The notes: generated by a model from the sequence alone, not told the origin. A DNA stretch of 64,000 nucleotides from an uncultured candidate division WWE3 bacterium (GCA_938004185.1 CALKWN010000065.1:315111-379110); one strand, 5' to 3'. Counted from the first letter of the stretch, positions 5,556 through 54,486 are shown. A program made the numbers and translations.

Positions 5556-5598
5556 AGCCGTAATTAGAACCAACAATTCTTTTTACGGCTATTTTTTT
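5556..5598. terminator. Bidirectional hairpin terminator between convergent genes (5217..5528 and gatB)
   Basis: AGCCGUAA...UUACGGCU stem flanked by T7 on the plus strand and a U-rich run on the minus strand. The loop is long (19 nt). Confidence 0.45.
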
Positions 5599-7290: not shown

Positions 7291-7292
7291 AT

Positions 7293-8732
7293 CTATTCCT
7301 TTATAAGTGTGGGCTTCTCGTTATGAAAACCCGTCTCTCTTTGATAAGAGCACAAAGCTCCGAAAATTTTTGACTCCTCATTCATTCTTGCCATTATCTG
7401 CACACCTACCGGAAGTCCGTTATAAAAACCGCAGGGGACGCTAACTCCCGGAACTCCTGCAATACAGCTGGGTTCGTTTAGTACATCCATCATTTCACCG
7501 AACATTGCAGAATTAGAACTTTCTCCGACATCTAAAGCCACGCAAGGCATTGATGGTGCTACAAGAAGATCCACTTTTTCAAAAGCCTTATCAAAACTGT
7601 CTTTTATTAAAGTTCTTACTTTTTGAGCTTTCGAATAGTAAGCGTCGTAGTATCCCGAGCTTAAAGTATACGTACCCAGCATTATTCTTTTTTTAGCTTC
7701 GAAGCCGAAAGAATTTCGGTCATTTCCGTATCTTATTCCGTCAAGACGCGCCAAATTAGAAGATACCTCGGATCTTTGTAAAATTGTATAGACCGCGATC
7801 GAGTATTTAGGGCTTAACATATCAACATCGATTATCTCGGCGCCCAAAGATTTGAATACTTCTATCGCTTCATCAACTTTTTTTCTTGTTCCCTCTTCAA
7901 GATCCATTTCAAAGTAGGACACCGGCCTTCCGATTTTAACTCCTTTCAAATCGTATTTACCTGCCTCCGACAAATAATCTTCAACAGCTGCGGGAGAGGA
8001 AGTTGCATCAAGAGGATCTTTCCCGGCCATAACCGAAAGAACTAACGCTCCGTCTTCGGCAGTTTTTGTAAGAGGTCCCGGGCTGTCCGTAGAAGAAGCC
8101 ATTGCAATAATTCCGTACCTGCTAACTCTTCCGTAAGACGGTTTGACTCCGGTTACTCCGCACCAAGAAGCAGGACCCCTAGTACTACCCCCGGTCTCAC
8201 TTCCTGTCGCAAAAAGGCACATGTGTGCTGAAACAGCTGCTGCCGAACCTCCGGATGAACCTCCCGGAACTTTTGTTAAATCCCAAGGATTGAAAGTTGT
8301 TCCATAATCGGAAGTTTCGGTTGAAGAACCATGAGCCAGCGCGTCGAGATTTGTTTTTCCGAGCAACACAGCACCGGCGTCGTTAAGTTTTTGTATCGCA
8401 GTAGCGTCAAAGGGAGGCTCGTATCCTTCAAGAATTTTTGAAGCCGCTGTTGTTTCAATATTTTTCGTTGAATAGTTATCTTTTGCTGCGTAGGGAATGC
8501 CTAACAAAGGTTTATCTTCAAAAGCTTTTTCTCCTTTTTCGGAAATTAAATTATCAGCTTCCTTTGCTCTTTCCATAGCAATATCTTTGGTCACTCTTAA
8601 AAAGGCTTTAATTTTCGGGTCAAATTTCTCGATCTGATCCAAACATGCAACGGTAAGGTCGGTTGATGAGATATCTCCTTTTTTTAGGTCCTTTAAGGCC
8701 TCTACAACTGTAAGTTCGTTCAAATTATTCAC
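7293..8732 (-). CDS. gatA: Glutamyl-tRNA(Gln) amidotransferase subunit A (amidase signature)
   Basis: GGSSGGSAAAV amidase signature. Matches GatA in length and context. Confidence 0.92.
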   Translation of the reverse strand: MNNLNELTVVEALKDLKKGDISSTDLTVACLDQIEKFDPKIKAFLRVTKDIAMERAKEADNLISEKGEKAFEDKPLLGIPYAAKDNYSTKNIETTAASKILEGYEPPFDATAIQKLNDAGAVLLGKTNLDALAHGSSTETSDYGTTFNPWDLTKVPGGSSGGSAAAVSAHMCLFATGSETGGSTRGPASWCGVTGVKPSYGRVSRYGIIAMASSTDSPGPLTKTAEDGALVLSVMAGKDPLDATSSPAAVEDYLSEAGKYDLKGVKIGRPVSYFEMDLEEGTRKKVDEAIEVFKSLGAEIIDVDMLSPKYSIAVYTILQRSEVSSNLARLDGIRYGNDRNSFGFEAKKRIMLGTYTLSSGYYDAYYSKAQKVRTLIKDSFDKAFEKVDLLVAPSMPCVALDVGESSNSAMFGEMMDVLNEPSCIAGVPGVSVPCGFYNGLPVGVQIMARMNEESKIFGALCSYQRETGFHNEKPTLIKE

Positions 8733-11722: not shown

Positions 11723-13480
11723 TCACTTAAGCCTAAGGTTTGCTTCTTTTACAAAATCTTCAAAATCCAGAGTATTCACGATATCTTGTTTCTCCGCCCA
11801 ACCTCTTCGAGCGTTGTAAATACCGTACCTTAGATAATTGAATTGTTCGGTAGAATGTGCGTCGGCATTTATTATCATCTTCACTCCCCATTGTTTTGCT
11901 TCTTTAACTAAGTCGTCTGTGAGATCCAGACGGTTCGGCTGAGAATTAATTTCTAAAATTTTATTGTTATCGCGCGCCGCCAAAAACACCTTGTTCCAAT
12001 CGGGATCTGCGGGATCGCGCCCGTTTATAATCCTTCCTGACGGATGCCCGATTATGTTGATATAAGGGTTTTCCAGTGCTGCTGTAAGGCGATCCGTCAA
12101 CTGCTCCTTGTCCTGATCAAAAGAGGTATGAATAGAAGCGACAGCGTAATCTAGCTCAGAAAGAATATCATCAGGCAATCCAAGAGTGGCGTCGGCTAAT
12201 ATATTAACCTCGTAGCCGAAAAAGACCTTAATAATATCCTGCTTCGAATTTATTTTATTTATAACCTCTCTTTTCTTTTTAATAATATCCGATACTTCTT
12301 TATATCCTCTGGAAGTTACACTTGGAGCATGATCTGAAATTCCAAGATACTTATAACCCATTGAGATTGCCGCTTCCACCATCTCCTCAATAGTGTTAAC
12401 TCCGTCAGAATCAACTGTGTGGCAGTGCACGTCACCTTTTATATCTTCTAAAGTTATTAACTCAGGCAAAGAATATGAAACCGCAGCTTCTATTTCATTA
12501 GACCCGTTTCTAAGTTCAGGCTCAATGTATGGTAGTCCTATAAATTTGTAAAAAGACGGTTCATCTTTAAATTCGTAAAGTTTTTCTCCTTTTTTTATAC
12601 CGTATTCAGACAAAGACATCTTTTTAGAGAGTGAGAAGTTTCTTAAAATAATGTTATGCTGTTTCGAGCCGGTAAAGTATTGGAGCATGGCACCGTAAGC
12701 TTCGGGAGTTGAAACTCTCAAATCCACTTGTAAATCGTTTTTGAGAACAACACTACATTTTTTATCACCTTGAGCTAAAACATCGGATATCTCGGGAAAT
12801 GCCATAAAATGTTTGATTACTTTTTCTGCATTTGTTGTTGCTACGGGTAAATCAATGTCACCGACTGTGGCGTTTTTACGCCTAAAAGATCCGGCCGCCT
12901 CCATGTGGGTAATACAATCGAGCGTATTCATGTAATCGTAGATTCTCTCAACAACCTCCTCAGCTTTCGAATACAACAACCTCTCCTTTTCATTTTTCGT
13001 CATTTTCAACTGGCTTATAGCTTCTAAAATATCTGATTCGGATTTTTCGCCAAAGCCTTCAAGATTTCTTATCTCACCTTTTTCAGCGTGCTCTTTAAGT
13101 TTTTCTACGGCCGTTTCACGTTTATTTAATTTAAAGGCCGCCGAAAGTTTAAACGCTTTCCTTGCACCTATTCCCCTGATACCTATTAATTCGAACATTC
13201 CGTCTGGAAGGTCCTTTTTTATCTCGTGAAATTCTTTTACAGAGCCGGTGGTGAAAAGTTCATCCAGGTGTGAATAAATTCCTGCACCTATGCCGGGAAT
13301 TTCTTTTAGTCGTTTATTTTCCCAAAGATCGTAAATTGAAACCGTGAGGTTGTCTAAAATCGAAATTGCGTTTTGATAGGCTCTGACACGGAAAGTGTTG
13401 AAATTTTTAACATCCATTGCGGCGAGAACTTCCTTAAGCTGTAAAATAACCTCTTTGTTGGGAATTCGCCTGTCTTTCAT
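11723..13480 (-). CDS. Family X DNA polymerase with a C-terminal PHP phosphoesterase domain (PolX)
   Basis: N-terminal HhH/pol-beta-like region (GIGARKA, nucleotidyltransferase GDID). C-terminal PHP His motifs (HCHT, SDH). Confidence 0.85.
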   Translation of the reverse strand: MKDRRIPNKEVILQLKEVLAAMDVKNFNTFRVRAYQNAISILDNLTVSIYDLWENKRLKEIPGIGAGIYSHLDELFTTGSVKEFHEIKKDLPDGMFELIGIRGIGARKAFKLSAAFKLNKRETAVEKLKEHAEKGEIRNLEGFGEKSESDILEAISQLKMTKNEKERLLYSKAEEVVERIYDYMNTLDCITHMEAAGSFRRKNATVGDIDLPVATTNAEKVIKHFMAFPEISDVLAQGDKKCSVVLKNDLQVDLRVSTPEAYGAMLQYFTGSKQHNIILRNFSLSKKMSLSEYGIKKGEKLYEFKDEPSFYKFIGLPYIEPELRNGSNEIEAAVSYSLPELITLEDIKGDVHCHTVDSDGVNTIEEMVEAAISMGYKYLGISDHAPSVTSRGYKEVSDIIKKKREVINKINSKQDIIKVFFGYEVNILADATLGLPDDILSELDYAVASIHTSFDQDKEQLTDRLTAALENPYINIIGHPSGRIINGRDPADPDWNKVFLAARDNNKILEINSQPNRLDLTDDLVKEAKQWGVKMIINADAHSTEQFNYLRYGIYNARRGWAEKQDIVNTLDFEDFVKEANLRLK

Positions 13481-19324: not shown

Positions 19325-20591
19325 AGCTTTTTTTCCATACCTTTCGAACAGTAAAAATGAGCAATATTAGAATCAAAAACTCGGATATATGAGTTACGAC
19401 AGCAGAACCGTAAAATGAGTATTTCGGTATAACCACATAGTTAGCTGTAAAATTAAAGATGGCGCTGACAAGATATATATAAGGAAGGTAGCGCTGGTAG
19501 CCGAGAGTCACTATTAGCCAAGCCAATGGCTGGGTGAGACTATAAAGTACAAGACCTGCAAGAAGTATTCTCAAAGCCGGTACTGAGTTAGTAAATTCAG
19601 CACCCCCGAGAATACGAACGGCCAGGGGTGAGAATATATAACCAAGAACCGAAAAAGCCAAAGCCGCCCAAAATAAAAACTTAAGTGATTGAGTTAGGGT
19701 TTCTTTTAATTTGTCCTTTCCCTGAGTCATGTGTACAACCATGATCGGGTAAACCGAATTCATAAAAAAGGTAGGAAGGACGAGAGCCACTTCAAACACC
19801 TTGTATGGTAAGGCGTAAAGACCTACGGCTTCGTTATTGCTAATTCCCAAAAAGGACGGGACGGGAAGAACTGACAGTAACAGCGAGTCTGCTTTAAAAT
19901 TAACCTGGCTAAAAACAAACATTAACCCCAGCGGAAGTGATGATGCTAAAAGGTATTTCCAGACCTCTTTATCGGGCTTAAATTCGGGCTCAACCCCAAG
20001 TGATTTTATAAAGAAATAGTTTACGGTAAATGTTACGAGTCCTCCTAAAACATAGCTGAAACTTAACCACATCACACCTGCGTTTTGAGATGAAAGTAAA
20101 AATACCAACGCCAGAATTAGTAAATATCCTGAGAGATATCCTATTGTCGACAAATCATATCTTAGTTTTGCCTGAAATATTATGTTTGTTGTTGTAAAAA
20201 GAGCTTGTGTAAAAATTAAAAATAAACTTAAAATTATTCCCAACTTTAAACTATAGGAGTATGGAAAAAACTTTAATGCGGCTAATAACAGTAAAATAAG
20301 AAACAACGAGAAAAACATTCTTATAACTAAAATGTTTCCGAAATATTTTCCTGCCTTACTCCAATCTTTAGAAATTTCTCTAGTGGCTATGGCATTTAAT
20401 CCAAAGTCGACTATCACGAAAAACAGCGCCGGCCACGCCTGCATCAAGCTAAACTGACCGTACATTTCACGTCCGTAAGTCCTGGTGATTATTACTGTGG
20501 CTAAAACCGTGATACAAAGACTAAAAATTTTACCGAAAAGTTGGTACACGGTGTTAGCAGCAATTTTTTTGTGAGTTATGGTAAGGTTCAT
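19314..20591 (-). CDS. Polysaccharide flippase (Wzx/MOP-type)
   Basis: 12-14 TM. N-terminal region typical of Wzx-like polysaccharide biosynthesis proteins. Confidence 0.75.
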   Translation of the reverse strand: MNLTITHKKIAANTVYQLFGKIFSLCITVLATVIITRTYGREMYGQFSLMQAWPALFFVIVDFGLNAIATREISKDWSKAGKYFGNILVIRMFFSLFLILLLLAALKFFPYSYSLKLGIILSLFLIFTQALFTTTNIIFQAKLRYDLSTIGYLSGYLLILALVFLLSSQNAGVMWLSFSYVLGGLVTFTVNYFFIKSLGVEPEFKPDKEVWKYLLASSLPLGLMFVFSQVNFKADSLLLSVLPVPSFLGISNNEAVGLYALPYKVFEVALVLPTFFMNSVYPIMVVHMTQGKDKLKETLTQSLKFLFWAALAFSVLGYIFSPLAVRILGGAEFTNSVPALRILLAGLVLYSLTQPLAWLIVTLGYQRYLPYIYLVSAIFNFTANYVVIPKYSFYGSAVVTHISEFLILILLIFTVRKVWKKSYGA

Positions 20592-21808
20592 TAGTCACAA
20601 TCTCCGATTCTCATTTGATTTATTATAAAGGCAGGCGGTTTGCCGGAAATTTTCTTCATATCTCTTATCGTATCGAAATGTTTGTAAGGAACGTTATCTC
20701 CATTCAACCAGGAAAAGTGATCGAAAGGAGGCTCATATTTTATTGTAAAGGGCATCACGGCTCTCACTCTATCATCCTTCAACCACACGTCTTCAAAAGC
20801 TTTTTTAGTGTATTCTGCAACTGTTTCTACAGGAAGGTAGCTCGGGTTGTAATTTACGCCTTCAGCGTGTGCCCAACCTGTTTCCGTTATAAATACCGGT
20901 AATTCTTTTTCCACTTTAAGAACTACTTCAAGAAAACTTAGTTCGGTTTCGTAAGCTTTTATGCTCCATCTACCTTCGTTATAGGGACTTCCGGAGAAAT
21001 TGGGTTGGGGATAGGGGTGTGAAGCCCAGCCGTCTAATTTTGAGAATATTCCCGGAACAGCGATTTCCATTCTTCTCATATACTCAAGAGAATCTAAATG
21101 GTTAGAGTCTGTTGGCGCAGAAACATTGAATGCGCCGTTTAGCATAAAGAAGTCCGCATTTTCCTGTTTGAAGGTATCGATAGTGAAATTTAAAATTTCA
21201 GCGTACTCGTCAGGATCTACCCGACCGTACCAGAAATTTTTATCGTTAGGCTCGTTGTACACACTAACATATCTGTATCTTATCGGCCAAACAAATCTGT
21301 TAAGAAACTCTGCGGCCTTTACCGTCTGTTCCTTATAGTTATCCGTATCAACATCCCAAAGCTGTATTACAGGGATTAAATGTTTTTCGCGTAATTTTCT
21401 AAAAACCCCGTCCCATTTTTCGAAAGCGGTGTCCTTTACATTGTATGGAATCAAAACATATCCCCAGTCTCCTTTTCCGGTGTTAACAAGTTCCTCGGCA
21501 CGATCAAAAAACTCGTCTTCTTCCGCGTATATATAAATCCCGAACTTATTGTTTTCTTCCCACAATGGATCGCTTCCGGTGTATGTATAAAACTCAACCT
21601 CTTCTACCTGATTGCACTCATCGTTGTTTTCTGCAACCCTCATCCTATCGACGTAAACCTGCCTTTTTTGATCATCCGACAACCTCTCTTCTTCGAGATA
21701 CTTAGCGTATTCTCTATAAAAAATCATAGCTGTAACTACCGCTACGCTTAAAAAAACAAATAGCAGAATTGTACGAAAACGGTATTTTCTAATTTTTAGT
21801 ACCGGCAC
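20591..21808 (-). CDS. Membrane-anchored glycoside hydrolase, GH5-like (clan GH-A)
   Basis: N-terminal TM. NEP acid/base motif (VYNEPND), H-x-Y (SHPY) and nucleophile motif ITETGW at GH5-consistent spacing. Confidence 0.65.
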   Translation of the reverse strand: MPVLKIRKYRFRTILLFVFLSVAVVTAMIFYREYAKYLEEERLSDDQKRQVYVDRMRVAENNDECNQVEEVEFYTYTGSDPLWEENNKFGIYIYAEEDEFFDRAEELVNTGKGDWGYVLIPYNVKDTAFEKWDGVFRKLREKHLIPVIQLWDVDTDNYKEQTVKAAEFLNRFVWPIRYRYVSVYNEPNDKNFWYGRVDPDEYAEILNFTIDTFKQENADFFMLNGAFNVSAPTDSNHLDSLEYMRRMEIAVPGIFSKLDGWASHPYPQPNFSGSPYNEGRWSIKAYETELSFLEVVLKVEKELPVFITETGWAHAEGVNYNPSYLPVETVAEYTKKAFEDVWLKDDRVRAVMPFTIKYEPPFDHFSWLNGDNVPYKHFDTIRDMKKISGKPPAFIINQMRIGDCD

Positions 21809-25769: not shown

Positions 25770-27107
25770 TTACAACTCTGTCGTAGTTCCCGCTATTATA
25801 AGCAAATCGTAATCTTCCCCGTCATCCAACGAATCCTCCACAATTATGTTAGGAAATGCATCCTTTAAATCTTCCTCGAGCAAGGCCTTGTAAGCAATAC
25901 TGTCTTTTTTAAATCTCAATAAAGTATCTTCTCTCACTTCGTCGGCGGTGTCTATATCAAATACTTTGTAACCTTTATCCTCAAGGAGAGTTTTGGTTCT
26001 GGCTGCCAAACCATTAACTCCGGCACCGTTAAGAACCATAACATCCAACTCCTCTTTTTTAAGATCGGGGGATGGCGCTTCCTCTCTCGGAGCCTCAACC
26101 TGCTCACTCAAAACATTTTCCTGCTGAGTAGTATCAACTGCCATTTGTGAAGAATCACCGGACTTGTTTTTATTAAAGAATAAGAAAAAGGATAAAATTC
26201 CGGCAAATATTAAAACTGCGGAAGCTCCAACATAAACAATACTTTTGTTACTTTTTACCTCAACCGGTAGGGGCATTAGATTAAGAAGGTTGTTTTGGGA
26301 AAACAATATGTCAGGATCTGCTTCAACTACATATTCTACAAGAATATTCAGTTTAAACTGCTCATCGTACTCAACATCAACTGGAGGCATTCCGATCTCG
26401 GCTACTTCATATCCTGCAACATCTAAACTCTGATAGTTTAAAGTGTAAGCTCTCTTTACTGGTGTTTTTTTCTTGTAAAAAGACAGCTCGGAAACAAATT
26501 TTTCGATCTGATCTGAGGTAATTTCTTTGTTACTTACACCGCTGTAAAAAATGCCATTAAGCTCGGATAAGGCCATTGCATGGCTGCCGTCAATTCTTGC
26601 AATAAATACCGCAGGATCGTTTGTACCGACATACTTAGGAAGCAGAAGTAACCACGGAACCACACTTTTAAGTGAGATTCCAACTGCATTCGAAACTTCC
26701 AAAAGTTTCTCCATATAATCCTTTTTTACACCGACAAATTGGTATAAAAAGGGAGCAATTTTTTGATAGGAAAAGAACAAATCTTCAAGAGGCACTTCCG
26801 TTACCTTTGCTTTTATATCGTTTAAAAGCTGCTCCTGCTTTTCACCGTCCCTTTTGTTTATCGTGATAAATCTAAGGATAGTGTCCTCGGGCTCAGTTAC
26901 AACGTTTAACGTCAGTTTTGAAAGTGAGGACTCTGTTACTTGGGAAATGGCGTTTTTAACTTCCTCAGCATATTTTGAAGTGTCTAAAATTTTTGTGTCG
27001 TTTACTACTTCGGGAGATACGGTATTTGAGTAAGATCTTAAACCGTCCTTTCCAAACAATGTGACTCTTAGAATGTTGTTATTTAAAGACAGGTAGATAT
27101 CTTGCAT
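25770..27107 (-). CDS. Membrane protein: unknown ~290-aa cytoplasmic N-domain, TM, extracellular LytR_C-like domain
   Basis: C-terminal ~90 aa (VMVLNGAGVNGLAARTKTLLEDKGYKV...DYDLLIIAGT) resembles the LytR C-terminal domain. Single TM near residue 300. Confidence 0.5.
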   Translation of the reverse strand: MQDIYLSLNNNILRVTLFGKDGLRSYSNTVSPEVVNDTKILDTSKYAEEVKNAISQVTESSLSKLTLNVVTEPEDTILRFITINKRDGEKQEQLLNDIKAKVTEVPLEDLFFSYQKIAPFLYQFVGVKKDYMEKLLEVSNAVGISLKSVVPWLLLLPKYVGTNDPAVFIARIDGSHAMALSELNGIFYSGVSNKEITSDQIEKFVSELSFYKKKTPVKRAYTLNYQSLDVAGYEVAEIGMPPVDVEYDEQFKLNILVEYVVEADPDILFSQNNLLNLMPLPVEVKSNKSIVYVGASAVLIFAGILSFFLFFNKNKSGDSSQMAVDTTQQENVLSEQVEAPREEAPSPDLKKEELDVMVLNGAGVNGLAARTKTLLEDKGYKVFDIDTADEVREDTLLRFKKDSIAYKALLEEDLKDAFPNIIVEDSLDDGEDYDLLIIAGTTTEL

Positions 27108-27126
27108 ATGTATAACTATAACATAA

Positions 27127-30000
27127 TTAACCTACTTTTCGGATCGAAAAATCTTCTCCGGCCTCTATGGATTTGGCCTGGATTTTTTTAGAAATGTCGT
27201 CGTAGAAAAGCTCGATTACCTTCTCCGTATCGTCATCTTTTTCGTAAGTAACTTCGATCGTATCTCCCACTACAAGACCCATTTCTTTTCTTTTTTCCTG
27301 CACTTTTCTTACAAACTCGCGAGCCATTCCTTCCATTTTTAACTGTTCGTTTATGTTTAAATCCAATCCTACTGTAACATTTGAAAAGGACACCGAAGCG
27401 AGGTCGCCTGATACCGAATCAACGTACTGCACATCCTTAACATTCACCTCATCTTGCACAAGCAAGGAAAGCTCAGGATGGGACACGCTCAATCCCGCTA
27501 CCACAATTTTTGATAAGGGCTGACGAACCGAAATTTTTCGGTCGCTTCTTATTGAAAGACCGTATGAAACCAGTTCTCTGACATTTTTCATCTCATCTAT
27601 AAGAGACCTGTTTAACTCGACAAAAGCAGGATCGTGATCGGGATATTTTTCAAGGTGAACTGATTCTTCTCTTAGGTTTGGAGAAAACTTTTTCAAAAGC
27701 TGGTAAATGCTTTCAGTCATAAACGGTATTACCGGAGCCGCCGCTTCACAAAAATTTCTTAAAACATAGAAAAGCGTGCCTATTGCTTCCTCGTCTCCTG
27801 CTGAAATTCTTTCTCTAGATCTTCGCACATACCACCTGGACAGGTCGTCGACAAATTCTTCAACTGCCCTTGCCGATTGAGGAATATAGTATGTCTCCAA
27901 ACTTTCAGATATTGTTTTTACAACTTCGTGCAACCTCGCCGTTATCCAAATATCCAAAATGTTCTCGGATTTGAACTCACCTTTATCTTTCCAGTCGAAT
28001 GCCGATGCGTAGGTTTCGAAATACTTTGCCGAATTCCACAATGGATTCATTACATTTCTGAGTTTAGTCCTTAACTCGGCCTCTTCGAAATTTGCATTTT
28101 CACCAACCATGAGAGGCGAACCCATCAGATAAAGTCTGAGAGAATCTCCTCCGTAGGTTTCGATTACTACCTTGGGATCGGTATAGTTGTTAAATGTCTT
28201 GCTCATTTTTCTTCCGTCAGAACCTGCCATAACTCCTGTTGAGATAACATTTTTAAATGAGTTACTATCGAACACCGCGGTTGAAAGTATGTGCATAACA
28301 TTAAACCACGCTCTTACTTGAGCAATATATTCGACAATGTAATCTCCGGGAAAGTTAGCTTCAAATTTTTCCTTATTTTCAAAAGGGTAATGAATTTGGC
28401 ACCATGGCATAGAACCTGCATCCAGCCATGAATCTAAAACCTCAGTTCTTCTTTTAAATTCTTTTCCGTCTTTTTTTATAACAATTCTATCGATAAAAGG
28501 CCTGTGTAAATCCTCAACCTTCTGGCCCGATAATTCTTCCAATTCTTTTACTGAAGAAATTACTATTCTCTCACCGTCTTCTGCCTCCCAAACCGGCATG
28601 GGAGTAGCCCAATATCTGTTTCTTGATATACACCAATCAGGTTGCTGAACAATGTTCTGTCCGAACCTGCCGTTTTTTAAATGATTTGGAATCCAATTTA
28701 TCTCCTCGTTTAGCTCGGACATTCTTTCTTTTAAAGAGGCTACATTTACAAACCAGCTGTGTTGGGCTCTTTGTATAAGTAGAGTGTCGCATCTGTCGTG
28801 ATATGGGAATCTGTGAGTTACTTTTTCGTTTTTGAATAGCAATCCTGCAGATTCAAGATCGGTTATTAGGGAGGGGTCGGCGTCTTTGTAAAACATTCCG
28901 CTATAAGGATTGGTTTCACCGTCACCCGGAATAAATTTTCCCTCATCGTCTATTGTTAGCATTAGTGTAAGACCGAAGTGTTTTCCCATTTCCGAGTCTA
29001 TTTCACCGAAGCCAGGGGCACTGTGAACAATTCCGGTTCCTTCGTCCATAGTCGCCATTCCGTCATAGTGGTAAATTTCAAATTCCCCTTCCTTACCTTT
29101 GTAATATTTAAAAGGCGGATCGTATTTTAGTCCGACAAGATCGCTGCCCTTTACTGTTTTTAGTACTTTGTATTCTTTTTCTACAAAAACTTCAGCTAAA
29201 CGGAGGTTTGCCGCTACATACTTTTCTTTTTCACATTCAACAAGAGAGTAATCGGCATCTTTATCTAGCACCAATGCCCTATTTGACGGAACAGTCCATG
29301 GGGTGGTTGTCCAGGCCAAAACAAAAACATCTTTAAATTCTCCCTCGCTTAAAATTTTAAATTTTACGGTTATGGCAGGATCTTCAACGTCCTTATACGA
29401 GTTATCCATCGCAACTTCAAAGTTAGACACCGGAGTTCCGCATTTAGTACAAAATAGTGACGTTCTTATACCTTCGTAAACCAATCCCTTATCGTAAAGC
29501 TGTTTGAAAGTCCACATAACGGATTCCATATATTCTTTGTTCGTTGTCCTATAGGCATTTTTTATATCGACCCACCTTCCTATTTTATTAACATACCAGT
29601 CCCACTCGGCTGAAACATCACGCGTATAGTTGTAGCATTCTTCGGCAAATCTTTGTAAACCGAACTTTTCAATATCGCGTCTGTTTTTTATCCCGAACTT
29701 TTTTTGAACCTTATTTTCGACTGTCAGACCGTGGGCATCCCAACCCCAAACTCTTTCGACTCTTTTTCCTTTCATTGTCTGAAACCTGGGAATTACATCT
29801 TTGGCAATAGACCCGAGCAAATGTCCGTAATGCGGAAGTCCTGAGATAAAGGGCGGACCGTCATAAAAAACGTACAAGTTTTCTTTAGGATTTTTTTCTA
29901 CAGACTTTTCAAAAATTTTGTTATCAAGCCAAAAACTCAAAACCTGTTCTTCCATTTGGGGAATTGTTAAGTTTTCTTTTTTATCACGATCTTTGGTCAT
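27127..30000 (-). CDS. ileS: Isoleucine--tRNA ligase
   Basis: HIGH-type motif (PHYGHLLG), KMSKT (GRKMSKTFNNY), CP1 editing region. 957 aa. Confidence 0.93.
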   Translation of the reverse strand: MTKDRDKKENLTIPQMEEQVLSFWLDNKIFEKSVEKNPKENLYVFYDGPPFISGLPHYGHLLGSIAKDVIPRFQTMKGKRVERVWGWDAHGLTVENKVQKKFGIKNRRDIEKFGLQRFAEECYNYTRDVSAEWDWYVNKIGRWVDIKNAYRTTNKEYMESVMWTFKQLYDKGLVYEGIRTSLFCTKCGTPVSNFEVAMDNSYKDVEDPAITVKFKILSEGEFKDVFVLAWTTTPWTVPSNRALVLDKDADYSLVECEKEKYVAANLRLAEVFVEKEYKVLKTVKGSDLVGLKYDPPFKYYKGKEGEFEIYHYDGMATMDEGTGIVHSAPGFGEIDSEMGKHFGLTLMLTIDDEGKFIPGDGETNPYSGMFYKDADPSLITDLESAGLLFKNEKVTHRFPYHDRCDTLLIQRAQHSWFVNVASLKERMSELNEEINWIPNHLKNGRFGQNIVQQPDWCISRNRYWATPMPVWEAEDGERIVISSVKELEELSGQKVEDLHRPFIDRIVIKKDGKEFKRRTEVLDSWLDAGSMPWCQIHYPFENKEKFEANFPGDYIVEYIAQVRAWFNVMHILSTAVFDSNSFKNVISTGVMAGSDGRKMSKTFNNYTDPKVVIETYGGDSLRLYLMGSPLMVGENANFEEAELRTKLRNVMNPLWNSAKYFETYASAFDWKDKGEFKSENILDIWITARLHEVVKTISESLETYYIPQSARAVEEFVDDLSRWYVRRSRERISAGDEEAIGTLFYVLRNFCEAAAPVIPFMTESIYQLLKKFSPNLREESVHLEKYPDHDPAFVELNRSLIDEMKNVRELVSYGLSIRSDRKISVRQPLSKIVVAGLSVSHPELSLLVQDEVNVKDVQYVDSVSGDLASVSFSNVTVGLDLNINEQLKMEGMAREFVRKVQEKRKEMGLVVGDTIEVTYEKDDDTEKVIELFYDDISKKIQAKSIEAGEDFSIRKVG

Positions 30001-30015
30001 AACAAAGAAATTTTA

Positions 30016-30150
30016 TCAAATTTGGGGCGCTTCGTTACCAATCTGCTCGGAAAAATAAATGTCGTTTACGTGGGCACGGTGCACAAGAAGACCTATCAAA
30101 CCTGACATTATTAAAATTAGCAATAAAAGTAGTAGGTAGGTTTTTTTCAT
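30016..30150 (-). CDS. Candidate 44-aa hydrophobic peptide translationally coupled to the PduO-like gene (ATGA overlap)
   Basis: Hand-translated: MKKTYLLLLLLILIMSGLIGLLVHRAHVNDIYFSEQIGNEAPQI. Its ATG overlaps the TGA stop of the upstream gene. Below the ORF-track size cut-off. Confidence 0.3.
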   Translation of the reverse strand: MKKTYLLLLLLILIMSGLIGLLVHRAHVNDIYFSEQIGNEAPQI

Positions 30151-30698
30151 TTTATTGGTTTCCAAAGTCTTTCCTCTCTAGAAAGTTCCATATTCACGTA
30201 TCTTGCCAAAACAAACAACAGGTCTGAAAGTCTGTTTATGTAAGGAAGAAGAAACCTCAATGATTTCTTTCCACCCTTGTTTATGTATGAAACAAAAGTT
30301 CTTTCAAGAGATCTCACCTTTACACGCGCCAGGTGAATCTGCGAAGCGGCCTCCGATCCTCCGGGTATTATAAAGGACTTGATTTCAGGCAACTGTCTTT
30401 GAAAGATGTCTATCTGGTCTTCTAAGTACCGTGTTTTCTTTTCCCATTCTCCGGCAGCTTCCTTTTTTAGCTTTAATCCTGCGATATACGCCCCGATCAT
30501 AAACAAATCTTCCTGCGTAGCTTCTAAAACCGGCACCGTTCGGCTTTTCTTTAGTGAAGACAACGCACACCCTAGTATCGCGTTTATTTCATCTGCGGTG
30601 CCAAGAAGCTCAAAAACCGGCTTTGATTTGAGTATCCGCTTTTTTGTTCCTAACAGGGATGACTTACCGGCGTCGCCATCTTTTGTGTATATCTGCAT
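30147..30698 (-). CDS. PduO-type ATP:cob(I)alamin adenosyltransferase
   Basis: N-terminal IYTKDGDAGKSSL and a helical-bundle family length (183 aa). Immediately downstream of nrdJ. Confidence 0.8.
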   Translation of the reverse strand: MQIYTKDGDAGKSSLLGTKKRILKSKPVFELLGTADEINAILGCALSSLKKSRTVPVLEATQEDLFMIGAYIAGLKLKKEAAGEWEKKTRYLEDQIDIFQRQLPEIKSFIIPGGSEAASQIHLARVKVRSLERTFVSYINKGGKKSLRFLLPYINRLSDLLFVLARYVNMELSREERLWKPIK

Positions 30699-30713
30699 AC
30701 TATGATGATACCA

Positions 30714-33242
30714 CTAACACCTGCTATATCCGCACTGGTAGCACTTAGCGCAACCTTCTTCCAGGACAAGTGTATAATTTCCGCATTCCGGGCACATATC
30801 GGTGTTGGAGAATACCTGCGATGGGGACTGCTGCCTATCCTCTACTGTTGTACCCCCGTTTCCGCCCTCATTTCCTCCTTCATCACCGTTCTTACTGCCG
30901 TTTTCCTTTACGGTAAAACCAAATTCTTCGGCTAAAACCTTCGCGACGGCGTCCGGTAAAGAACTGACTCTATTTTTACCGAATCCGATGGATTTTGACC
31001 CACCTATTCCTGCTAGTTGAACTATTATTTCGCGAACAATTTCAAGATTGAAGTGGGGCATTCTGAGCCAACCGGACAAAAGACGACCTAATCCTTCGGC
31101 TAAGGCGGCAACATCACTACCTGCTTTCCCGACGTTTAAAAATACCTCAAGAGGTCTGCCTGAATCATCTTTATTGATTGTAATAAAAGCGTTTCCCTGA
31201 GGTGTTTTTACCTTATATGTTGTTCCGCTAAGCTTATATCCCCTGGTAATAAGTATCTCTTCTATAGATTTATCCTGGCTGGATAAATGTATCTCTTTAT
31301 TAATCGGTTCTGATGGCGTTTCTTTTGAATCCTTGGTCTCTTTCTGATCTTTTGTTGATTTTGTCTCCAATACTACTTCCTGCCTACTGCCTGTAACGTA
31401 AACTGTTAAACCCTTACATCCGGTCTGCCATCCCAGCATATAAACCTTGGCGACATCTTCTTTTGTGGCACCTTCCGGAAAGTTGCATGTCTTGGATATT
31501 GAATTATCAACAAAAGCCTGAATTGAAGCCTGTGTAAGTATGTGTTCTTCCGGGGTAACCTCGGCAGAAACGACAAAAGTATTTCGTACACTCTCCGGCA
31601 ACTCTAAGATGCCTCTGCATGTTCCGGTTTCAATTACCCTATCAATTATTGATTTTTTCATTTCTTCGGAAAAGTTCAGTTTATCTAAAGCTTTCTGGAA
31701 AAAGGGGCTCACGTAAGCAAGGGTCATCTTTCCCTCATCTCCGGCGCTCTGGTAAACATTCCTGTAGTAAGCCAAAGCAAAAACCGGTTCACATCCGTAG
31801 CCTTCAACGCCTGCAACAGTAGAAATTGTACCTGTGGGAGCAATGGTGGCCTGAGCACCGTTTCTAATACCGTAGAGCTTTATTCCGTCCAAAATCGAGT
31901 CCCAGTTAATCCAGGGTCGGCCGAAATTCCTTTTATACTCTTTTATCGGTTTTGGGGGTGCCCATTTTAGGTTTTCCGGATCATAAATACTTCCATGGAT
32001 TTTTCTAAACGGCCCCCTTTCTTTTGCTAGCTCAATAGAGGCTCTCATAGAATGGAATCTAATAAATTCCGAAACCTGGGCGGCAAACTCCTGACCTTCT
32101 TCGCTGCCGTATCTTATACCCAAAGAGTACATAGCATCCGCCAAAGCCATAAAACCGAGTCCTATTCTTCTGACGTCCATGGCCGCATCTTTTATCTCCG
32201 GAACAGCAGGTATGTACCTATTGGCTTCTACGACATTATCCAAAAATCTTGTAGCCGATATTACGGTCTTTTCAAGTTCTTCCCAGTTTAGTCTTCCGTC
32301 TTCAGTAAGATGCTCTGCCAGGTTTATGGATCCTAAACAACAGTTTTCGTAAGGTCCCAGCCACTGCTCACCGCAGGGATTTGTTGCTTCTAACTCGTAC
32401 ATGTGCGGAACCGGGTTTTCTTTGTTTGCCGTATCTATAAATAAAACACCGGGCTCTCCGTTTCTGTGCGCGCACTCTACAATCAAGTCAAATATTTCTC
32501 TTGCCCTTGGCGTTTCCGCCACTTTTTTTGTATGAGGATCTATTAATTCATAGGTTGTATCGTTTTTTACGGCCTCCATAAACACATCGGTAAGAGCAAC
32601 TGACAAGTTAAAATTGGATATTGTACCTTCAACTGCTTTTGAGGCAATAAAATCTCTTATATCCGGGTGGTCCACTCTTAAAACACCCATATTTGCCCCT
32701 CTTCTGACACCTCCTTGAGCTATTTCTCCGAAGGCGGCATCATATACCTTTAAAAATCCTACGGGTCCTGTGGCAACACCGTTGCTCGCCGAAACCCTCG
32801 ACCCTTTAGGTCTTAGCCTTGTAAAAGAAAATCCGTTTCCTCCGCCGCTTTGCTGGATTAAAGACGCAACTCTAAGGGTAGAAAAAATACCGTCCTTCTG
32901 CTTTCCCAAATCGTCTGCTATTGGAAGAACGAAGCAGGCAGCTAACTGGCCCAAAGGAGTTCCTGCACCTGTAAAGGTGGGCGAGTTCGGAAAAAATTTT
33001 TTGGTAGAAAGTAAGTTGTAAAATTCTATTTTAGATCTCTCTACATCAGCGTACGGTCTGTCGGGCTCAGCCATAATATTAGAGATGCGTTCAAACATCT
33101 GCTCAGGAGTTTCGCTTACCTGACCATTTTCATCTCGTCTAAGATATCTTTTCTCAAGAATCTTTGCAGCGTTATCAGAAAATTCAATATACTGGTTTTT
33201 GGAGAAAGCAGACGCATCTTCACGGTAGAGAAAACTACTCAT
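30714..33242 (-). CDS. nrdJ: Class II (adenosylcobalamin-dependent) ribonucleotide reductase
   Basis: Monomeric NrdJ-length protein with the conserved N-terminal region. C-terminal CPECG...CAKCYQCGYSRC zinc ribbon. A Gly/Asn-rich low-complexity insert near the C-terminus. Confidence 0.88.
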   Translation of the reverse strand: MSSFLYREDASAFSKNQYIEFSDNAAKILEKRYLRRDENGQVSETPEQMFERISNIMAEPDRPYADVERSKIEFYNLLSTKKFFPNSPTFTGAGTPLGQLAACFVLPIADDLGKQKDGIFSTLRVASLIQQSGGGNGFSFTRLRPKGSRVSASNGVATGPVGFLKVYDAAFGEIAQGGVRRGANMGVLRVDHPDIRDFIASKAVEGTISNFNLSVALTDVFMEAVKNDTTYELIDPHTKKVAETPRAREIFDLIVECAHRNGEPGVLFIDTANKENPVPHMYELEATNPCGEQWLGPYENCCLGSINLAEHLTEDGRLNWEELEKTVISATRFLDNVVEANRYIPAVPEIKDAAMDVRRIGLGFMALADAMYSLGIRYGSEEGQEFAAQVSEFIRFHSMRASIELAKERGPFRKIHGSIYDPENLKWAPPKPIKEYKRNFGRPWINWDSILDGIKLYGIRNGAQATIAPTGTISTVAGVEGYGCEPVFALAYYRNVYQSAGDEGKMTLAYVSPFFQKALDKLNFSEEMKKSIIDRVIETGTCRGILELPESVRNTFVVSAEVTPEEHILTQASIQAFVDNSISKTCNFPEGATKEDVAKVYMLGWQTGCKGLTVYVTGSRQEVVLETKSTKDQKETKDSKETPSEPINKEIHLSSQDKSIEEILITRGYKLSGTTYKVKTPQGNAFITINKDDSGRPLEVFLNVGKAGSDVAALAEGLGRLLSGWLRMPHFNLEIVREIIVQLAGIGGSKSIGFGKNRVSSLPDAVAKVLAEEFGFTVKENGSKNGDEGGNEGGNGGTTVEDRQQSPSQVFSNTDMCPECGNYTLVLEEGCAKCYQCGYSRC

Positions 33243-33551
33243 AATAATTTATGAGTCTCACAAGCCGGCAACCTTTCACTGCCCGAAGCAAAAATTGTCG
33301 GAACGCGAGACTGTATGAACTAAATACTGCTTAGTAAATGAAATCAAAAAAACGGAAAATATACAAGGAAATCTTCGTTAGGATATTAGAACAATCTGTT
33401 GATTTTATAAAGAGAAATTTTTGTGAATGTTGAGATACCGCAATTTTAAAAATTTGGTAGGTCGGGAGATGCTTTTATAAAAATTTTCCGGCAACCGCTG
33501 TGAAAAAGGCTTGGGCTTACTTCTGCCTCAAATTCTATTTCTGTCTCAGAT
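33243..33551 (-). promoter_or_regulatory. Unusually long (~310 nt) leader/intergenic region upstream of nrdJ with a GUCUC...GAGAC-closed structure next to the start codon
   Basis: No ORF. Hairpins sit just 5' of the AUG. No B12 box or NrdR box could be recognised by eye. Confidence 0.3.
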
Positions 33552-34739
33552 TTACTTCTGTCTTAAAAATGTAGGTATATCAAACCCGGTTCCGTAATCT
33601 TCCTCTTCGGCATCATCGGGTTTCCACATATCCGCAGGCAGTTTGGGTTTTTTCTCTTCAGTAACCGGTGTTTCCGGCTTTACTGGCTGCATTATAGGAG
33701 GTTGAACAGGAGTTTCAGGTTTGGGTCTATTCTGTACTTGGCTGTAGTGCTTTTCCACATATCCGGCCACAGAATCATCTTCTTCAGGAACCTCAAAACC
33801 GGTTGCAATTACCGTTATCTTAAGCTGACCTGCAAGTTCATCGTCTATGGATGTACCGAAAATGATATCAGCTTCTTCATTTGCAATACTCCTAATAATA
33901 TTTGCCGCTCTGTCTACTTCTCTCATTGTAAGATCGGGCCCGCCCGAAATATTGAACAATATGCCTTTTGCTCCCTCAACGGATTGCTCCAGCAAAGGAG
34001 AAGATATTGCCGCTCTGGCTGCAACTTCAGCACGATTCTCTCCGGTACCTATACCTATGCCCATTAGTGCAGTCCCGGCGTCCTTCATAATAGTTTTAAC
34101 ATCCGCGAAATCTACATTAATAAGTCCCGGCATGACAATCAAATCAGAAATACCCTGTACACCTTGGTTTAAAACGCTGTCCGACAACCTAAAGGCATCT
34201 ATTATGGACATATCTTCGTCAGCAACTTCTAATAGCTTCTGGTTCGGAATAGTAATAAGAGCATCCACTTCTTTTCTAAGTTCTTCCATGCCTCTGTCGG
34301 CAGCACGCATTCTCTGTATACCTTCGAAATGAAAAGGTTTCGTTACAACCCCTATGGTAAGGGCACCCGACTCTTTGGCGACCTTTGCAACAACAGGAGA
34401 TGCCCCGGTACCTGTACCGCCACCCAAACCTGCAGTTATAAACACCATGTTTGCACCCTCGAGATTATTTTTTATCAGATCCATAGATTCTTCGGCCGCT
34501 TTCTTTCCGATTTCAGGATTAGATCCTGCACCCAGACCCTGTGTAAGTTCTTGACCGATAGGTATTTTTATTACTGCTTTGTTTATGGAAAGATCTTGGG
34601 CGTCTGTGTTAATTGCAACAAACTCAACACCCCTTATCTGATTGGACTCGATCATCGAGTTTATTACGTTTCCGCCGGCACCGCCGACACCGACGACGCG
34701 AATTTTTGCAAATCGTTCTATTTCTGGTTTAACTTGCAT
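33552..34739 (-). CDS. ftsZ: Cell division GTPase FtsZ
   Basis: GGGTGTG tubulin signature. Pro/Glu-rich C-terminal linker. Confidence 0.95.
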
Positions 34740-34845: not shown

Positions 34846-34874
34846 AAAAAACCCTAAAAACTTTCTTTTTAGGG
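34846..34874 (-). terminator. Intrinsic terminator/attenuator between ftsA and ftsZ, overlapping the ftsA stop codon
   Basis: Minus-strand RNA: CCCUAAAAA-gaaag-UUUUUAGGG followed by U6. The ftsA UAA lies within the 5' stem. A second CUGCCCUAAAAA copy follows 24 nt downstream. Confidence 0.5.
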
Positions 34875-36125
34875 CAGAAAAGATTTAAGTTTACCGAAAA
34901 TCTTAAAAAAACTTTTGTTCATATTACCCCTCTTGTCATCAAAAGACAATAACTGACTGCCTCTAAAAAGTTTTACGCCGTACAAAACAGCTCCTACTCC
35001 GGCAGAAGAAGAGGGACCCTGAATTTCATCTATTAACCCCGTCACACCTCTCGGAATTCCTAAACGTACGGGCATTTTTAAATTTAACTTGGCATTTCTT
35101 TCTACATTTGCAGTGAGGGCACCGCCCCCCGTAATTACAACACCAGCTGGTAACTTACCTGTCAGATTAACTTTCTGAACTTCCAGAGCAATAAGTCTGA
35201 AAATTTCTTCCAGGCGTGCATCAAGAATCTTGTAAAGCATTTGTCTGGGAAGACGGTCGATCTCGAGACCGAATTCTGAAACATCAAAATCCTCATCTTT
35301 TTTTACGGCATCTGAATTTTTTGAAATTGCGGCTTCGTTGCTGAGCCTTATTTTTATGCGTTCGGCGTCCTCTAAACGGGATCTTAGTCCTATGGCCAAA
35401 TCACTCGTAATAAGCTTTCCGCCTATCGGAAGAACGGCTGAGTGAACCGGACTTCCGTCGAGAAATGCAATCATTGAGGTAGTACCGCCCCCTATATCAA
35501 CCAACAAAGTACCGAGCTCTTTTTCCGTATCAGTCAGTACAGCTTCTGCTGAAGCTACACCCGTGTATACCATTTCTTCGACGTTTACTCCAACCTGATT
35601 AACACATTTCAAAATGTTTCTTAAAGCTATGGAAGCGCCGTGAATAATGTTGGTTTCAACCTCTAACCTTACACCTGACATGCCGACAGGATCTTTTATA
35701 CCTTCCTGAGAATCTATTGAAAAATCTCTTGGAATAACATGGATGATCTCGCGTGTAGAGGGAAGGGAAACCGCCTGTGCCGCCTCAATAACTCTCGTAA
35801 CATCTTCTTTTGATATCTCGCTGGTCTGGCTCGGAGAGACAGCAACAACACCATGCGAATTAAGGGTTTCTATATGGCCTCCGTTTATGGTCACAAAAGC
35901 ACTTGAAACCGAAACGCCGGCCATTCTTTCAGCCTTCTCTATGCTGGCAGCAATAGCCTCAACTGCGCTATCGATATCAACAACATTTCCTTTATTTACA
36001 CCTTTTGAAGGAACTTCGCCCGAAACACCTATTACAGACACCTTCGACTCAGAGACCGATGCGATGGTCGTACCCACCTTAGTGGAGCCGATGTCTATTC
36101 CTGTAATTATCTTTTCTTTGGGCAT
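34869..36125 (-). CDS. ftsA: Cell division protein FtsA
   Basis: Actin-like ATPase motifs (GIDIGSTKV, DIGGGTT). Confidence 0.92.
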   Translation of the reverse strand: MPKEKIITGIDIGSTKVGTTIASVSESKVSVIGVSGEVPSKGVNKGNVVDIDSAVEAIAASIEKAERMAGVSVSSAFVTINGGHIETLNSHGVVAVSPSQTSEISKEDVTRVIEAAQAVSLPSTREIIHVIPRDFSIDSQEGIKDPVGMSGVRLEVETNIIHGASIALRNILKCVNQVGVNVEEMVYTGVASAEAVLTDTEKELGTLLVDIGGGTTSMIAFLDGSPVHSAVLPIGGKLITSDLAIGLRSRLEDAERIKIRLSNEAAISKNSDAVKKDEDFDVSEFGLEIDRLPRQMLYKILDARLEEIFRLIALEVQKVNLTGKLPAGVVITGGGALTANVERNAKLNLKMPVRLGIPRGVTGLIDEIQGPSSSAGVGAVLYGVKLFRGSQLLSFDDKRGNMNKSFFKIFGKLKSFLP

Positions 36126-53832: not shown

Positions 53833-54486
53833 TTATTCTGTCTTTGGCTTTGCTGAATTTCTTCTGCTCTTAATAAATTCAAAAATCATCGGCAAAACAG
53901 ATATAAAGATTATCGTTATAACTACCAGAGAAAAGTTGTCTTTCACAAAAGGTATATTTCCGAAAAAATATCCTGCGAATATAAACAAAGACACCCAAAC
54001 AAAACCCCCGACAATATTGTAGGTCATGAAATATTTGTATTTCATACCCCCGATACCCGCGACAAAAGGAGCAAACGTTCTGACTATGGGAACAAATCGT
54101 GCCAAAAATATTGTTTTACCCCCGTGTTTATTATAAAAAGCCTGAGTTTTCTCGATATGTTCTTTTTTTATAGGGACTCTTGGATTGCTAATAAGTTTCT
54201 GCCCAAAAAAATGCCCTATCCAGTAATTTGCCGTGTCTCCGAGAAAAGCGGCAAACCACAAAAGAAAAAACAGCAAAACTACATTAAAAGCACCCAGCGA
54301 AGCAAAAGCTCCGGCTGCAAACAAAAGAGAATCTCCCGGCAAAAAAGGGGTAAAAACAAAACCGGTTTCCATAAATACAATAAAAAAAAGTATAAGATAA
54401 GACGCCGTACCGTATTGGCTTATAATCTCACCCAAATGAGTATCTATGTGAAGTATAAAAGAAACGATTCCCATGATTAAATCCAT
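53833..54486 (-). CDS. DedA/VTT-family membrane protein
   Basis: Conserved DedA motif (F.PG.S..FAAGAFAS.., GK..FLARFVP..R). Confidence 0.8.
   Translation of the reverse strand: MDLIMGIVSFILHIDTHLGEIISQYGTASYLILFFIVFMETGFVFTPFLPGDSLLFAAGAFASLGAFNVVLLFFLLWFAAFLGDTANYWIGHFFGQKLISNPRVPIKKEHIEKTQAFYNKHGGKTIFLARFVPIVRTFAPFVAGIGGMKYKYFMTYNIVGGFVWVSLFIFAGYFFGNIPFVKDNFSLVVITIIFISVLPMIFEFIKSRRNSAKPKTE

Follow-up and report, generated by a model that had tools for sequence, protein, structure and literature searches.

The window analysed here, a stretch of 64,000 nucleotides (GCA_938004185.1 CALKWN010000065.1:315111-379110), belongs to a genome of candidate division WWE3 (Patescibacteria) and contains nrdJ, a gene for a ribonucleotide reductase (RNR), followed by the adenosyltransferase gene pduO and by a gene for a membrane micro-protein of 44 amino acids. 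A conserved 57-nt RNA hairpin lies directly upstream of nrdJ. We regard it as rather probable that this locus is a module for the synthesis of deoxyribonucleotides consisting of nrdJ, pduO, and the coupled micro-protein gene, with the clade-specific hairpin as a candidate cis-regulator of nrdJ. The genes as such are ordinary for a corrinoid salvager; the hairpin and the family of micro-proteins are real, lineage-specific additions to them that had not been described before. The analysis covered the 64-kb window of this one genome and +/-5 kb around nrdJ of related loci, which are referred to by numbers with the prefix L.

A conserved hairpin in the leader of nrdJ

The hairpin was delimited by covariation and folding and consists of the following parts, all on the minus strand:

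33255-33311: 57-nt RNA hairpin, ending 12 nt before the AUG of nrdJ
33304-33311 with 33255-33262: helix P1, 8 bp, followed by a 2x2 internal loop
33290-33301 with 33265-33276: helix P2, 3+8 bp with one A.C mismatch, according to the predicted fold
33277-33289: apical loop of 13 nt, GCUUCGGGCAGUG, with a conserved GGCAGUG core
33243-33254: A/U-rich 12-nt spacer between hairpin and AUG, without a Shine-Dalgarno (SD) sequence

In the window, the hairpin has a minimum free energy (MFE) of -23.4 kcal/mol with a z-score of -2.6, and the z-scores across relatives range from -2.3 to -4.9. The same architecture is predicted independently in each of 15 distinct sequences, which together form alignment A9 (an earlier version comprised 12 sequences). 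In A9, 94.5% of the cells are paired and compensatory changes occur in 14 of the 19 pairs. None of 500 shuffles reaches any of the covariation measures, and partner columns that were slid against each other pair in 37-57.5% of cells. The stems are wholly rewritten across lineages, P1 reading UCUCGUG/CGUGAGA in L003 and GUGAGUUA/UAACUCAC in L089. While the stems covary, the G, A, and U positions of the loop are kept in at least 90% of the sequences. The loop core GGCAG is present in 12 of the 15 sequences and is varied to GGUUG in L008, GGCAA in L089, and GCAAG in L100.

About 21% of the paired cells are G.U pairs (hand count in the 12-sequence alignment), and covariance models score the sense strand with 33-88 bits vs 14-26 bits for the antisense strand. 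The G.U pairs and the low antisense scores indicate an RNA structure on the sense strand of nrdJ rather than a DNA palindrome. The distance between hairpin and AUG is 10-16 nt in all 15 loci, whereas the distance to the upstream gene ftsZ varies, so the hairpin belongs to nrdJ. Covariation, a fixed position before one gene, and restriction to one strand characterize the element as a conserved structured RNA. No second copy was found with the covariance models R1 and R2 in the 64-kb window or in about 90 other loci; a match of 22 bits in L069 was rejected as an unrelated hairpin without the loop motif. With the hairpin formed, the accessibility of the start region is 0.27-0.59, which is unremarkable.

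Several other readings of the element were examined and discarded. The in-frame TAA 9 nt upstream of the ATG and loop indels that are not multiples of three are incompatible with a coding role, be it as additional N-terminal residues of NrdJ or as a leader peptide. The CAGUG of the loop recalls an iron-responsive element (IRE), but the pairs that flank an IRE loop are missing. A general pseudoknot between loop and start was rejected as well, because GGCAG:CUGCC complementarity exists only in L006, L009, and L094 and the tail is too short for it alongside the full helix.

In these three loci, the sequence CUGCC, complementary to the loop GGCAG, lies 2-3 nt before the AUG of nrdJ (L006, 4990-4998; L009, 4913-4920; L094, 1613-1620). 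In L006, the MFE structure of a longer context adopts the CUGCC:GGCAG pairing in place of the hairpin. In two more distant Patescibacteria, hairpins occur at the equivalent position (L010, 4900-4976; L013, 4900-4973) with the loops UUGGCAGUG and UUGGGCAA, respectively. These were recognized by eye, are divergent, are misaligned by MAFFT and not scored by R1 or R2, and were excluded from the hairpin statistics. L010 has a second hairpin in which a GGGGG Shine-Dalgarno sequence is sequestered; the 5' arm of this second hairpin, AUCCC, has GGGAU at the foot of the first one as a possible alternative partner. The CUGCC pairing and the second hairpin of L010 hint at alternative conformers, which are not common to the clade of the window. 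A possible likeness of the L010 loop CAGUGCGAG to an in-vitro-selected vitamin B12 aptamer was not used as evidence.

The ftsZ-nrdJ intergenic region

The hairpin occupies the 3' part of the region between ftsZ and nrdJ, in which the following features were noted:

33243-33551, minus strand: ftsZ-nrdJ intergenic region of 309 nt, between the ftsZ stop (33552) and the nrdJ ATG (33242)
33517-33567, no strand assigned: 18-nt tandem repeat with 2.9 copies (TRF), spanning the ftsZ stop; duplicated 3' end of ftsZ
33361-33371, minus strand: upstream DNA block TTTCCTTGTAT, defined by alignment, about 14 nt upstream of the promoter-like element
33321-33347, minus strand: promoter-like element, inferred from conserved alignment blocks, with a -35-like TTGATT (33342-33347), a 15-nt spacer, and a -10-like TATTTA (33321-33326)

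The initial annotation had treated the whole region as an atypically long untranslated region of 310 nt with stem-loops abutting the AUG. Structure next to the start codon was indeed found in the form of the hairpin. The long leader did not hold up: as a whole, the gap folds no better than shuffled sequences (z = 0.29) and is therefore not a long structured untranslated region, its 5' part is unconserved, and tandem duplicates of the 3' end of ftsZ mark its beginning. In relatives, the gap is 158-380 nt long, and conservation in the alignment is restricted to its 3' ~130 nt. The repeats at the 3' end of ftsZ explain part of this variation in length.

The promoter-like arrangement TTGATT-N15-TATTTA would place the transcription start a few nucleotides before the hairpin, and the transcribed leader of nrdJ is probably about 80-90 nt long. 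The -10-like block has TATAAA as its equivalent in L006 and L089. Of the 11 positions of TTTCCTTGTAT, ten are kept in at least seven of eight sequences (the near group of relatives and L006) and eight are invariant; the block is present in L100, too. An imperfect inverted repeat, TACAAnG-N9-CnTTGTA, exists in some relatives, with the block as its right arm. The block may serve as a factor-binding site or an UP-like element.

Tandem copies were also seen in related loci. In L005 (4653-4730) and L011 (4624-4770), ftsZ is followed by 3-6 repeats of CATCTGAGTACAGAAGTGATTACG, a unit of ~24 nt, and a related ~23-nt unit, GTACAGAAGTGGTAGTCATCTGA, follows the micro-protein gene in L011 (8180-8250) and L022. 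These short tandem repeats look like a dispersed family of mini-repeats in intergenic regions of WWE3.

Known regulators and the distribution of nrdR

It had further been proposed that the leader could hold a cobalamin riboswitch or an NrdR operator. The leader was compared with 4227 Rfam families by cmscan, with the gathering score applied over the whole window and E<=10 over 33150-33650. Nothing in the leader reached the gathering score, and at E<=10 only chance-level matches to two unrelated families, mir-2002 and STnc350 (E 4 and 7.1), were obtained. The cobalamin riboswitch models RF00174 and RF01689 gave no match at the gathering score in the window or at E<=10 in 33150-33650.

For NrdR boxes, a 16-bp palindrome, acaCwAtATaTwGtgt, was used with a threshold of 12/16 matches; this is reportedly the consensus of Rodionov and Gelfand (2005). 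No site with 12/16 was found in any of the 15 WWE3-type leaders. The positive controls, which carry nrdR, worked: boxes with 13-14/16 matches were found in L045 (two, 31 bp apart), L074, L069, L075, and L078. Neither the 64-kb window nor the +/-5 kb around nrdJ in any WWE3 locus contains nrdR. A search for pseudogene remnants of nrdR in the leaders (tblastn, E<=50, word size 2) yielded only noise in inconsistent frames. A search for NrdR homologues returned Levybacteria-like clusters only and is uninformative on WWE3. No terminator was found in the leader by scanning; a U-run (U6) follows the hairpin in L007 only, and a terminator or attenuator was rejected for this reason.

Among the 80 NrdJ loci that were fetched, nrdR lies immediately upstream of nrdJ in 28 and in none of the hairpin-bearing loci. 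In Anaerolineales (Chloroflexota), the order is ftsA-ftsZ-nrdR-nrdJ, as observed in L015, L017, L019, L024-L026, L030, and L044 (at about 1650-7460). The hairpin is absent from related NrdJ loci of other phyla. The block ftsA-ftsZ-nrdJ in both Anaerolineales and WWE3 is compatible with shared ancestry or with transfer between the phyla.

Possible functions of the hairpin

According to the proposed mechanism, the promoter of nrdJ would be located about 10-20 nt upstream of the hairpin, which would form the 5' end of a leader of about 85 nt. A factor acting in trans would read the conserved loop; a protein, perhaps NrdJ itself, is the most likely candidate, and a small molecule is less likely. 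Binding to the loop could then set the stability of the nrdJ mRNA and/or the initiation of translation via access of the 30S subunit to the adjacent start. The genes pduO and ileS, the former together with the micro-protein gene, would additionally be expressed from leaderless-type promoters of their own.

Several points weigh against this account. A stable 5' hairpin could be merely an mRNA stabilizer or a site for RNase III, and the members of the clade have no expression platform in common, be it a terminator or a sequestered SD. The assignment of the promoter is weak, TATTTA lacking a final T and not being called by a consensus scan. Essentially one clade has the hairpin, so its anticorrelation with nrdR represents a single evolutionary event and is confounded by phylogeny, and the absence of nrdR from WWE3 holds only for the window and for +/-5 kb around nrdJ. 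For the module as a whole, the linkage of the micro-protein gene to pduO is broken in L094/L095 and L010, and its linkage to ileS in L008 and L092/L093.

The main rival explanation takes the hairpin as a passive 5'-terminal stabilizer or as a site for RNase III or other processing, without any sensing. It would account for a long, nearly continuous helix of ~19 bp that is probably located at the extreme 5' end of the transcript, for the lack of a conserved expression platform or terminator, and for the unremarkable accessibility of the start. However, a pure stabilizer needs no loop sequence, and the preservation of the GGCAGUG loop across lineages with fully rewritten stems argues against it; the geometry of the internal loop and the distance to the AUG are conserved, too. 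We consider a purely passive role possible but on the unlikely side. The DNA-level alternative, an operator for a dimeric repressor, would agree with an inverted repeat near the start codon and with the arm TTGCCGG, which resembles a -35 hexamer. About one fifth of the paired cells are G.U, and these would turn into A.C mismatches if the element were a DNA palindrome or were read from the other strand; the reverse strand scores far lower than the sense strand, and it is pairing and not stem sequence that is conserved between lineages, which is the signature of RNA structure and not of a protein-DNA site. Such an operator is accordingly very improbable.

The same low standing has to be given to a leader that acts as a cobalamin (adenosylcobalamin, AdoCbl) riboswitch or NrdR operator and makes nrdJ respond to B12 or to dATP/ATP. 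The position before a B12-dependent RNR gene is suggestive, and nrdR adjoins nrdJ upstream in other lineages, some with NrdR boxes. The WWE3 loci, by contrast, have no Rfam riboswitch, no NrdR box, and no adjacent nrdR or remnant of it, and their conserved leader element is a single hairpin instead of a multi-helix cobalamin aptamer. This proposal is largely refuted, and little credence is left for it. A more far-reaching version of the candidate cis-regulator, namely that the hairpin is a new sensor RNA, either an autoregulatory operator for NrdJ or another protein or a tiny riboswitch for a corrinoid or deoxynucleotide, that it replaces the lost nrdR of an ancestral ftsZ-nrdR-nrdJ order, and that the CUGCC pairing in L006, L009, and L094 represents the OFF conformer, is speculative and in our view improbable.

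NrdJ and PduO

The hairpin is followed by the two genes that define the metabolic side of the module:

30714-33242, minus strand: nrdJ (842 aa), with the Pfam domains RNR lgN, lgC, and TSCPD and a match to TIGR02504
30147-30698, minus strand: pduO (183 aa), PduO-type ATP:cob(I)alamin adenosyltransferase, with matches to PF01923, TIGR00636, and PDB entries
30705-30713, minus strand: TGGTATCAT, extended -10-like element between nrdJ and pduO, ending 6 nt ahead of the ATG of pduO

NrdJ contains PF00317 and PF02867 (7e-123) as well as the TSCPD domain PF12637 at residues 675-772. It scores 637 bits against the NrdJ_Z model TIGR02504 (cut-off 399.95) and 321 bits against the class I model TIGR02506, which is under the cut-off of 341. 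The C-terminus, CPECGNYTLVLEEGCAKCYQCGYSRC, forms a CxxC...CxxC tail; a cysteine-rich C-terminal tail, the zinc-finger tail, and the TSCPD region are typical of this NrdJ subfamily, in which the tail has a functional role. By these matches, the nrdJ product is classified as a class II, adenosylcobalamin-dependent RNR. The closest WWE3 sequences, among them that of the complete chromosome RAAC2_WWE3_1, are 83-84% identical to NrdJ of the window, and the nearest NrdJ outside the WWE3/Patescibacteria loci is that of Anaerolineales with 52-58% identity.

PduO matches PF01923 with 3e-44 and 151.5 bits (cut-off 24) and TIGR00636 with 141.6 bits (cut-off 108.45). It also matches the PDB structures 3ci1 (PduO of Lactobacillus reuteri) and 2idx (human MMAB) with E-values of 1e-20 to 1e-26. 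Its N-terminus reads YTKDGDAGKSS, in which residues 5-13, TKDGDAGKS, agree with the ATP-binding motif T(K/R)xGDxGx(T/S) and align with 2ah6. These similarities identify the product as a PduO-type adenosyltransferase that is predicted to form AdoCbl from imported corrinoid. The spacer between nrdJ and pduO is kept in eight loci although synonymous sites are saturated, and TGGTATCAT may be a candidate internal promoter for a leaderless mRNA of pduO and the micro-protein gene.

The gene identities given in the initial annotation were correct, as supported by Pfam, NCBIfam, and PDB matches. The layout was as described as well, except that the nrdJ-pduO spacer measures 15 and not 16 nt and the ftsZ-nrdJ gap 309 and not 310 nt. 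The statement that the window contains neither cobalamin biosynthesis genes nor a second RNR agrees with a scan of about 50 open reading frames (ORFs) of the window: none encodes an RNR of another class, and none contains domains for corrinoid synthesis or transport, including ECF, BtuCDF, and BtuM.

The micro-protein gene

Downstream of pduO lies the third gene of the proposed module:

30016-30150, minus strand: micro-ORF (44 aa), whose ATG overlaps the pduO TGA as ATGA; no Pfam or NCBIfam family

The encoded protein starts with MKK, followed by one transmembrane helix and a juxtamembrane motif, (Y/H)RAxxxDxxF. The consensus of the family is M-K-K-Y-Y-L-L, a hydrophobic helix of ~20 residues, and (Y)-R-A-x-x-x-D-x-(Y/F)-F. 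The frame is open in all compared loci, even where PduO identity is only 41-43%. Pairwise dN/dS values (ratios of nonsynonymous to synonymous substitution rates) are 0.02-0.41 overall and 0.02-0.25 in the core of helix and motif, with dS being saturated. A word-indexed search retrieved 17 clusters (90% identity), all annotated as hypothetical and all from WWE3 or Patescibacteria. An exhaustive search of 1.84 billion representatives with a hidden Markov model (HMM) retrieved 34 clusters (50% identity), all of 34-61 aa, so there are no fusions of the Rosetta-stone type; the family comprises at least these 34 clusters. A metagenome scan with the protein pattern gave eight near-identical loci only. 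No match to Pfam or NCBIfam families was obtained, and comparison with known parts of corrinoid transporters (BtuCDF, BtuM, ECF-CbrT, CbiMNQO) gave no family match, the only homologues being hypothetical proteins of 34-61 aa.

The gene calling of the source contig omitted the micro-ORF. The preserved frame, purifying selection, and a family of uniformly small proteins show that it is a real gene, as had been suggested, and conservation in relatives had been named beforehand as the condition for this. By its sequence features, the product is a lineage-specific, stand-alone micro-protein that is predicted to span the membrane once. The ATGA overlap of stop and start, which had been pointed out initially, is present, and the micro-ORF is on this basis predicted to be translationally coupled to pduO.

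The start of the micro-ORF overlaps or almost abuts the pduO stop in most loci. In L008 and L092/L093, it remains behind pduO, and a gene of the RodA family takes the place of ileS. In L094/L095, the order is nrdJ-micro-ORF-ileS without pduO in between, and in L010 it is tRNA-micro-ORF-ileS-rodA-nrdJ-pduO with a promoter-like element before the micro-ORF. What is constant for the micro-ORF is its neighbourhood and not a single neighbour.

The positive-inside rule, applied to the N-terminal KK and to the R/D and acidic tail after the helix, suggests an N-in/C-out topology, in which the conserved motif probably faces the outside. An outward motif fits poorly to a cytoplasmic tether for PduO, and this earlier proposal is further weakened by the loci in which the micro-ORF has no adjacent pduO. 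The micro-protein may instead take part in corrinoid uptake or hand-off or, alternatively, have a role in the envelope or in cell division. In the latter case, it would be unrelated to B12 and PduO, being a small membrane protein of the envelope or cell division or the product of an ileS-linked gene, and nothing but an ancestral neighbourhood would connect them. The arrangements in L094/L095 and L010, the presence of ftsA, ftsZ, rodA, and a gene for a LytR_C protein as neighbours, the probable position of the motif outside the membrane, and the lack of fusions among the 34 clusters favour such an independent role. The close junction of pduO stop and micro-ORF start in most loci speaks against it, as do the survival of the pduO-micro-ORF pair when ileS is replaced by rodA and the presence of nrdJ, pduO, or both within a few kb wherever a contig extends for more than about 1 kb 5' of the micro-ORF. 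On balance, an independent role is a serious possibility, though somewhat less likely than not.

Comparison with known systems

A comparable combination of genes has been described for the B12 auxotroph Lactobacillus delbrueckii, in which the cluster nrdJ-cbrS-cbrT-pduO is associated with B12 uptake by ECF-CbrT (PMC5997447). Both loci combine a class II RNR gene and pduO with one or more membrane components, in L. delbrueckii as a system that imports corrinoid, adenosylates it, and feeds NrdJ. Because the gene pairing matches this cluster, the WWE3 module belongs to a known kind, corrinoid salvage. Unlike in L. delbrueckii, the sole membrane gene in WWE3 encodes the 44-aa single-pass protein, which has no similarity to CbrT or to an ECF S-component. 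The nrdJ-pduO pairing supports the view that WWE3 cells live on scavenged corrinoids.

The arrangement nrdR-nrdJ is known from nrdRJ of Streptomyces. In the present set, it was seen together with NrdR boxes in loci of Anaerolineales, Dehalococcoidales, Levybacteria, and DPANN archaea. These loci share with WWE3 the NrdJ subfamily with TSCPD domain and C-terminal zinc-finger tail and, in Anaerolineales, also ftsA-ftsZ upstream. In contrast to them, WWE3 has no nrdR or boxes at this place and carries a structured RNA leader directly before nrdJ.

Cobalamin riboswitches (RF00174, RF01689) are likewise leader RNAs at B12-related genes, but the WWE3 element, a lone hairpin of ~57 nt, has neither a multi-way junction nor a B12 box. 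In addition, the genes usually repressed by B12 riboswitches are those of B12-independent isozymes or transporters and not nrdJ. Single hairpins in 5' untranslated regions (UTRs) are known as operators or stabilizers, for example the IRE bound by the IRE-binding protein IRP, the operator of the coat protein of phage MS2, the RNase III hairpins of rnc and pnp, and the 5' stem-loop of ompA. The WWE3 element resembles them in being one stable stem-loop, placed close to the 5' end or start codon, with a sequence-specific loop. It differs in that no similarity in sequence or model was found, and the likeness of CAGUG to the IRE loop is one of letters only. For Pseudomonas aeruginosa, a long 5' UTR of nrdAB is reported to modulate the level and stability of the mRNA (PMC12528414). 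This is a further RNR mRNA with a leader that affects expression, as is proposed for nrdJ of WWE3.

The paper on the WWE3 genome reports sparse biosynthesis and does not discuss RNR and B12 (PMC3812714). Literature searches found no description of the nrdJ hairpin or of the micro-protein. Patescibacteria are ultrasmall and largely uncultured bacteria. Their gene regulation is, to our knowledge, almost unstudied, and we know of no native riboregulator that has been characterized in them. DNA precursors are made by no route other than RNR, which gives the control of this enzyme a central place in the growth of these cells. A clade-specific leader at the place where other lineages have nrdR is a concrete and testable case of candidate RNA-level control in a reduced genome, and with its 57 nt the hairpin is well suited for direct biochemical tests. 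The micro-protein family represents a conserved, unannotated membrane component which is often missed by gene callers.

Start regions in the window

The leader of nrdJ can be compared with the start regions of the other genes, for which the following were used:

About 45 gene starts surveyed, for example those of the genes at 1094-3205, 11723-13480, 20591-21808, 25770-27107, 27127-30000, 30147-30698, and 53833-54486
30010-30018, minus strand: TGATAAAAT, extended -10-like element that ends 9 nt ahead of the ATG of ileS and contains the stop codon of the micro-ORF

An SD-like sequence is present at 9 of 45 genes of the window. At no fewer than nine of the 45, among them pduO and ileS, an extended -10-like TGnTANNNT ends 6-10 nt before the start codon. 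This suggests that leaderless mRNAs or mRNAs with very short leaders are common in this WWE3 genome, a prevalence which is useful for the annotation of starts in these genomes. Against this leaderless-type background, the structured nrdJ leader of ~85 nt stands out.

The element TGATAAAAT is kept in the near group and in L006. On the source contig, the called ileS (942 aa) lacks the first 15 codons of the form that begins at the first ATG (957 aa). The conserved arrangement TGATAAAAT-N9-ATG upstream speaks for the longer form.

Gene order and variants of the locus

The genes that flank the module are:

34869-36125, minus strand: ftsA
33552-34739, minus strand: ftsZ
27127-30000, minus strand: ileS, downstream of the micro-ORF

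On the minus strand, the order is ftsA, ftsZ, the 309-nt gap, nrdJ, the 15-nt spacer, pduO, micro-ORF, and ileS. The remaining window contains housekeeping functions, i.e. the dcw cluster, uvrABC, lexA, gatAB, glycolysis, and four tRNAs. Synteny of ftsA-ftsZ-nrdJ-pduO-micro-ORF-ileS is found in more than 15 related WWE3 loci. The full order was seen in L002-L007, L009, L011, and L022 and on the contigs L089, L096/97, and L100/101; L090 and L091 contain the portion from nrdJ to ileS.

In one WWE3 lineage, an ORF of 111 aa without Pfam match lies between nrdJ and pduO on the opposite strand (L096, 4000-4335, minus strand; L097, 2757-3092). A different arrangement is seen in two deeper, WWE3-like loci (L018, 4250-4777; L064, 4170-4778), where the ftsZ-nrdJ interval contains pduO, encoded on the opposite strand and divergent from nrdJ. 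There, nrdJ is preceded by a consensus leaderless-type promoter, TTGACA-N16/17-TAGGAT or TACGAT, 6-8 nt from the start, and has neither the hairpin nor the micro-ORF.

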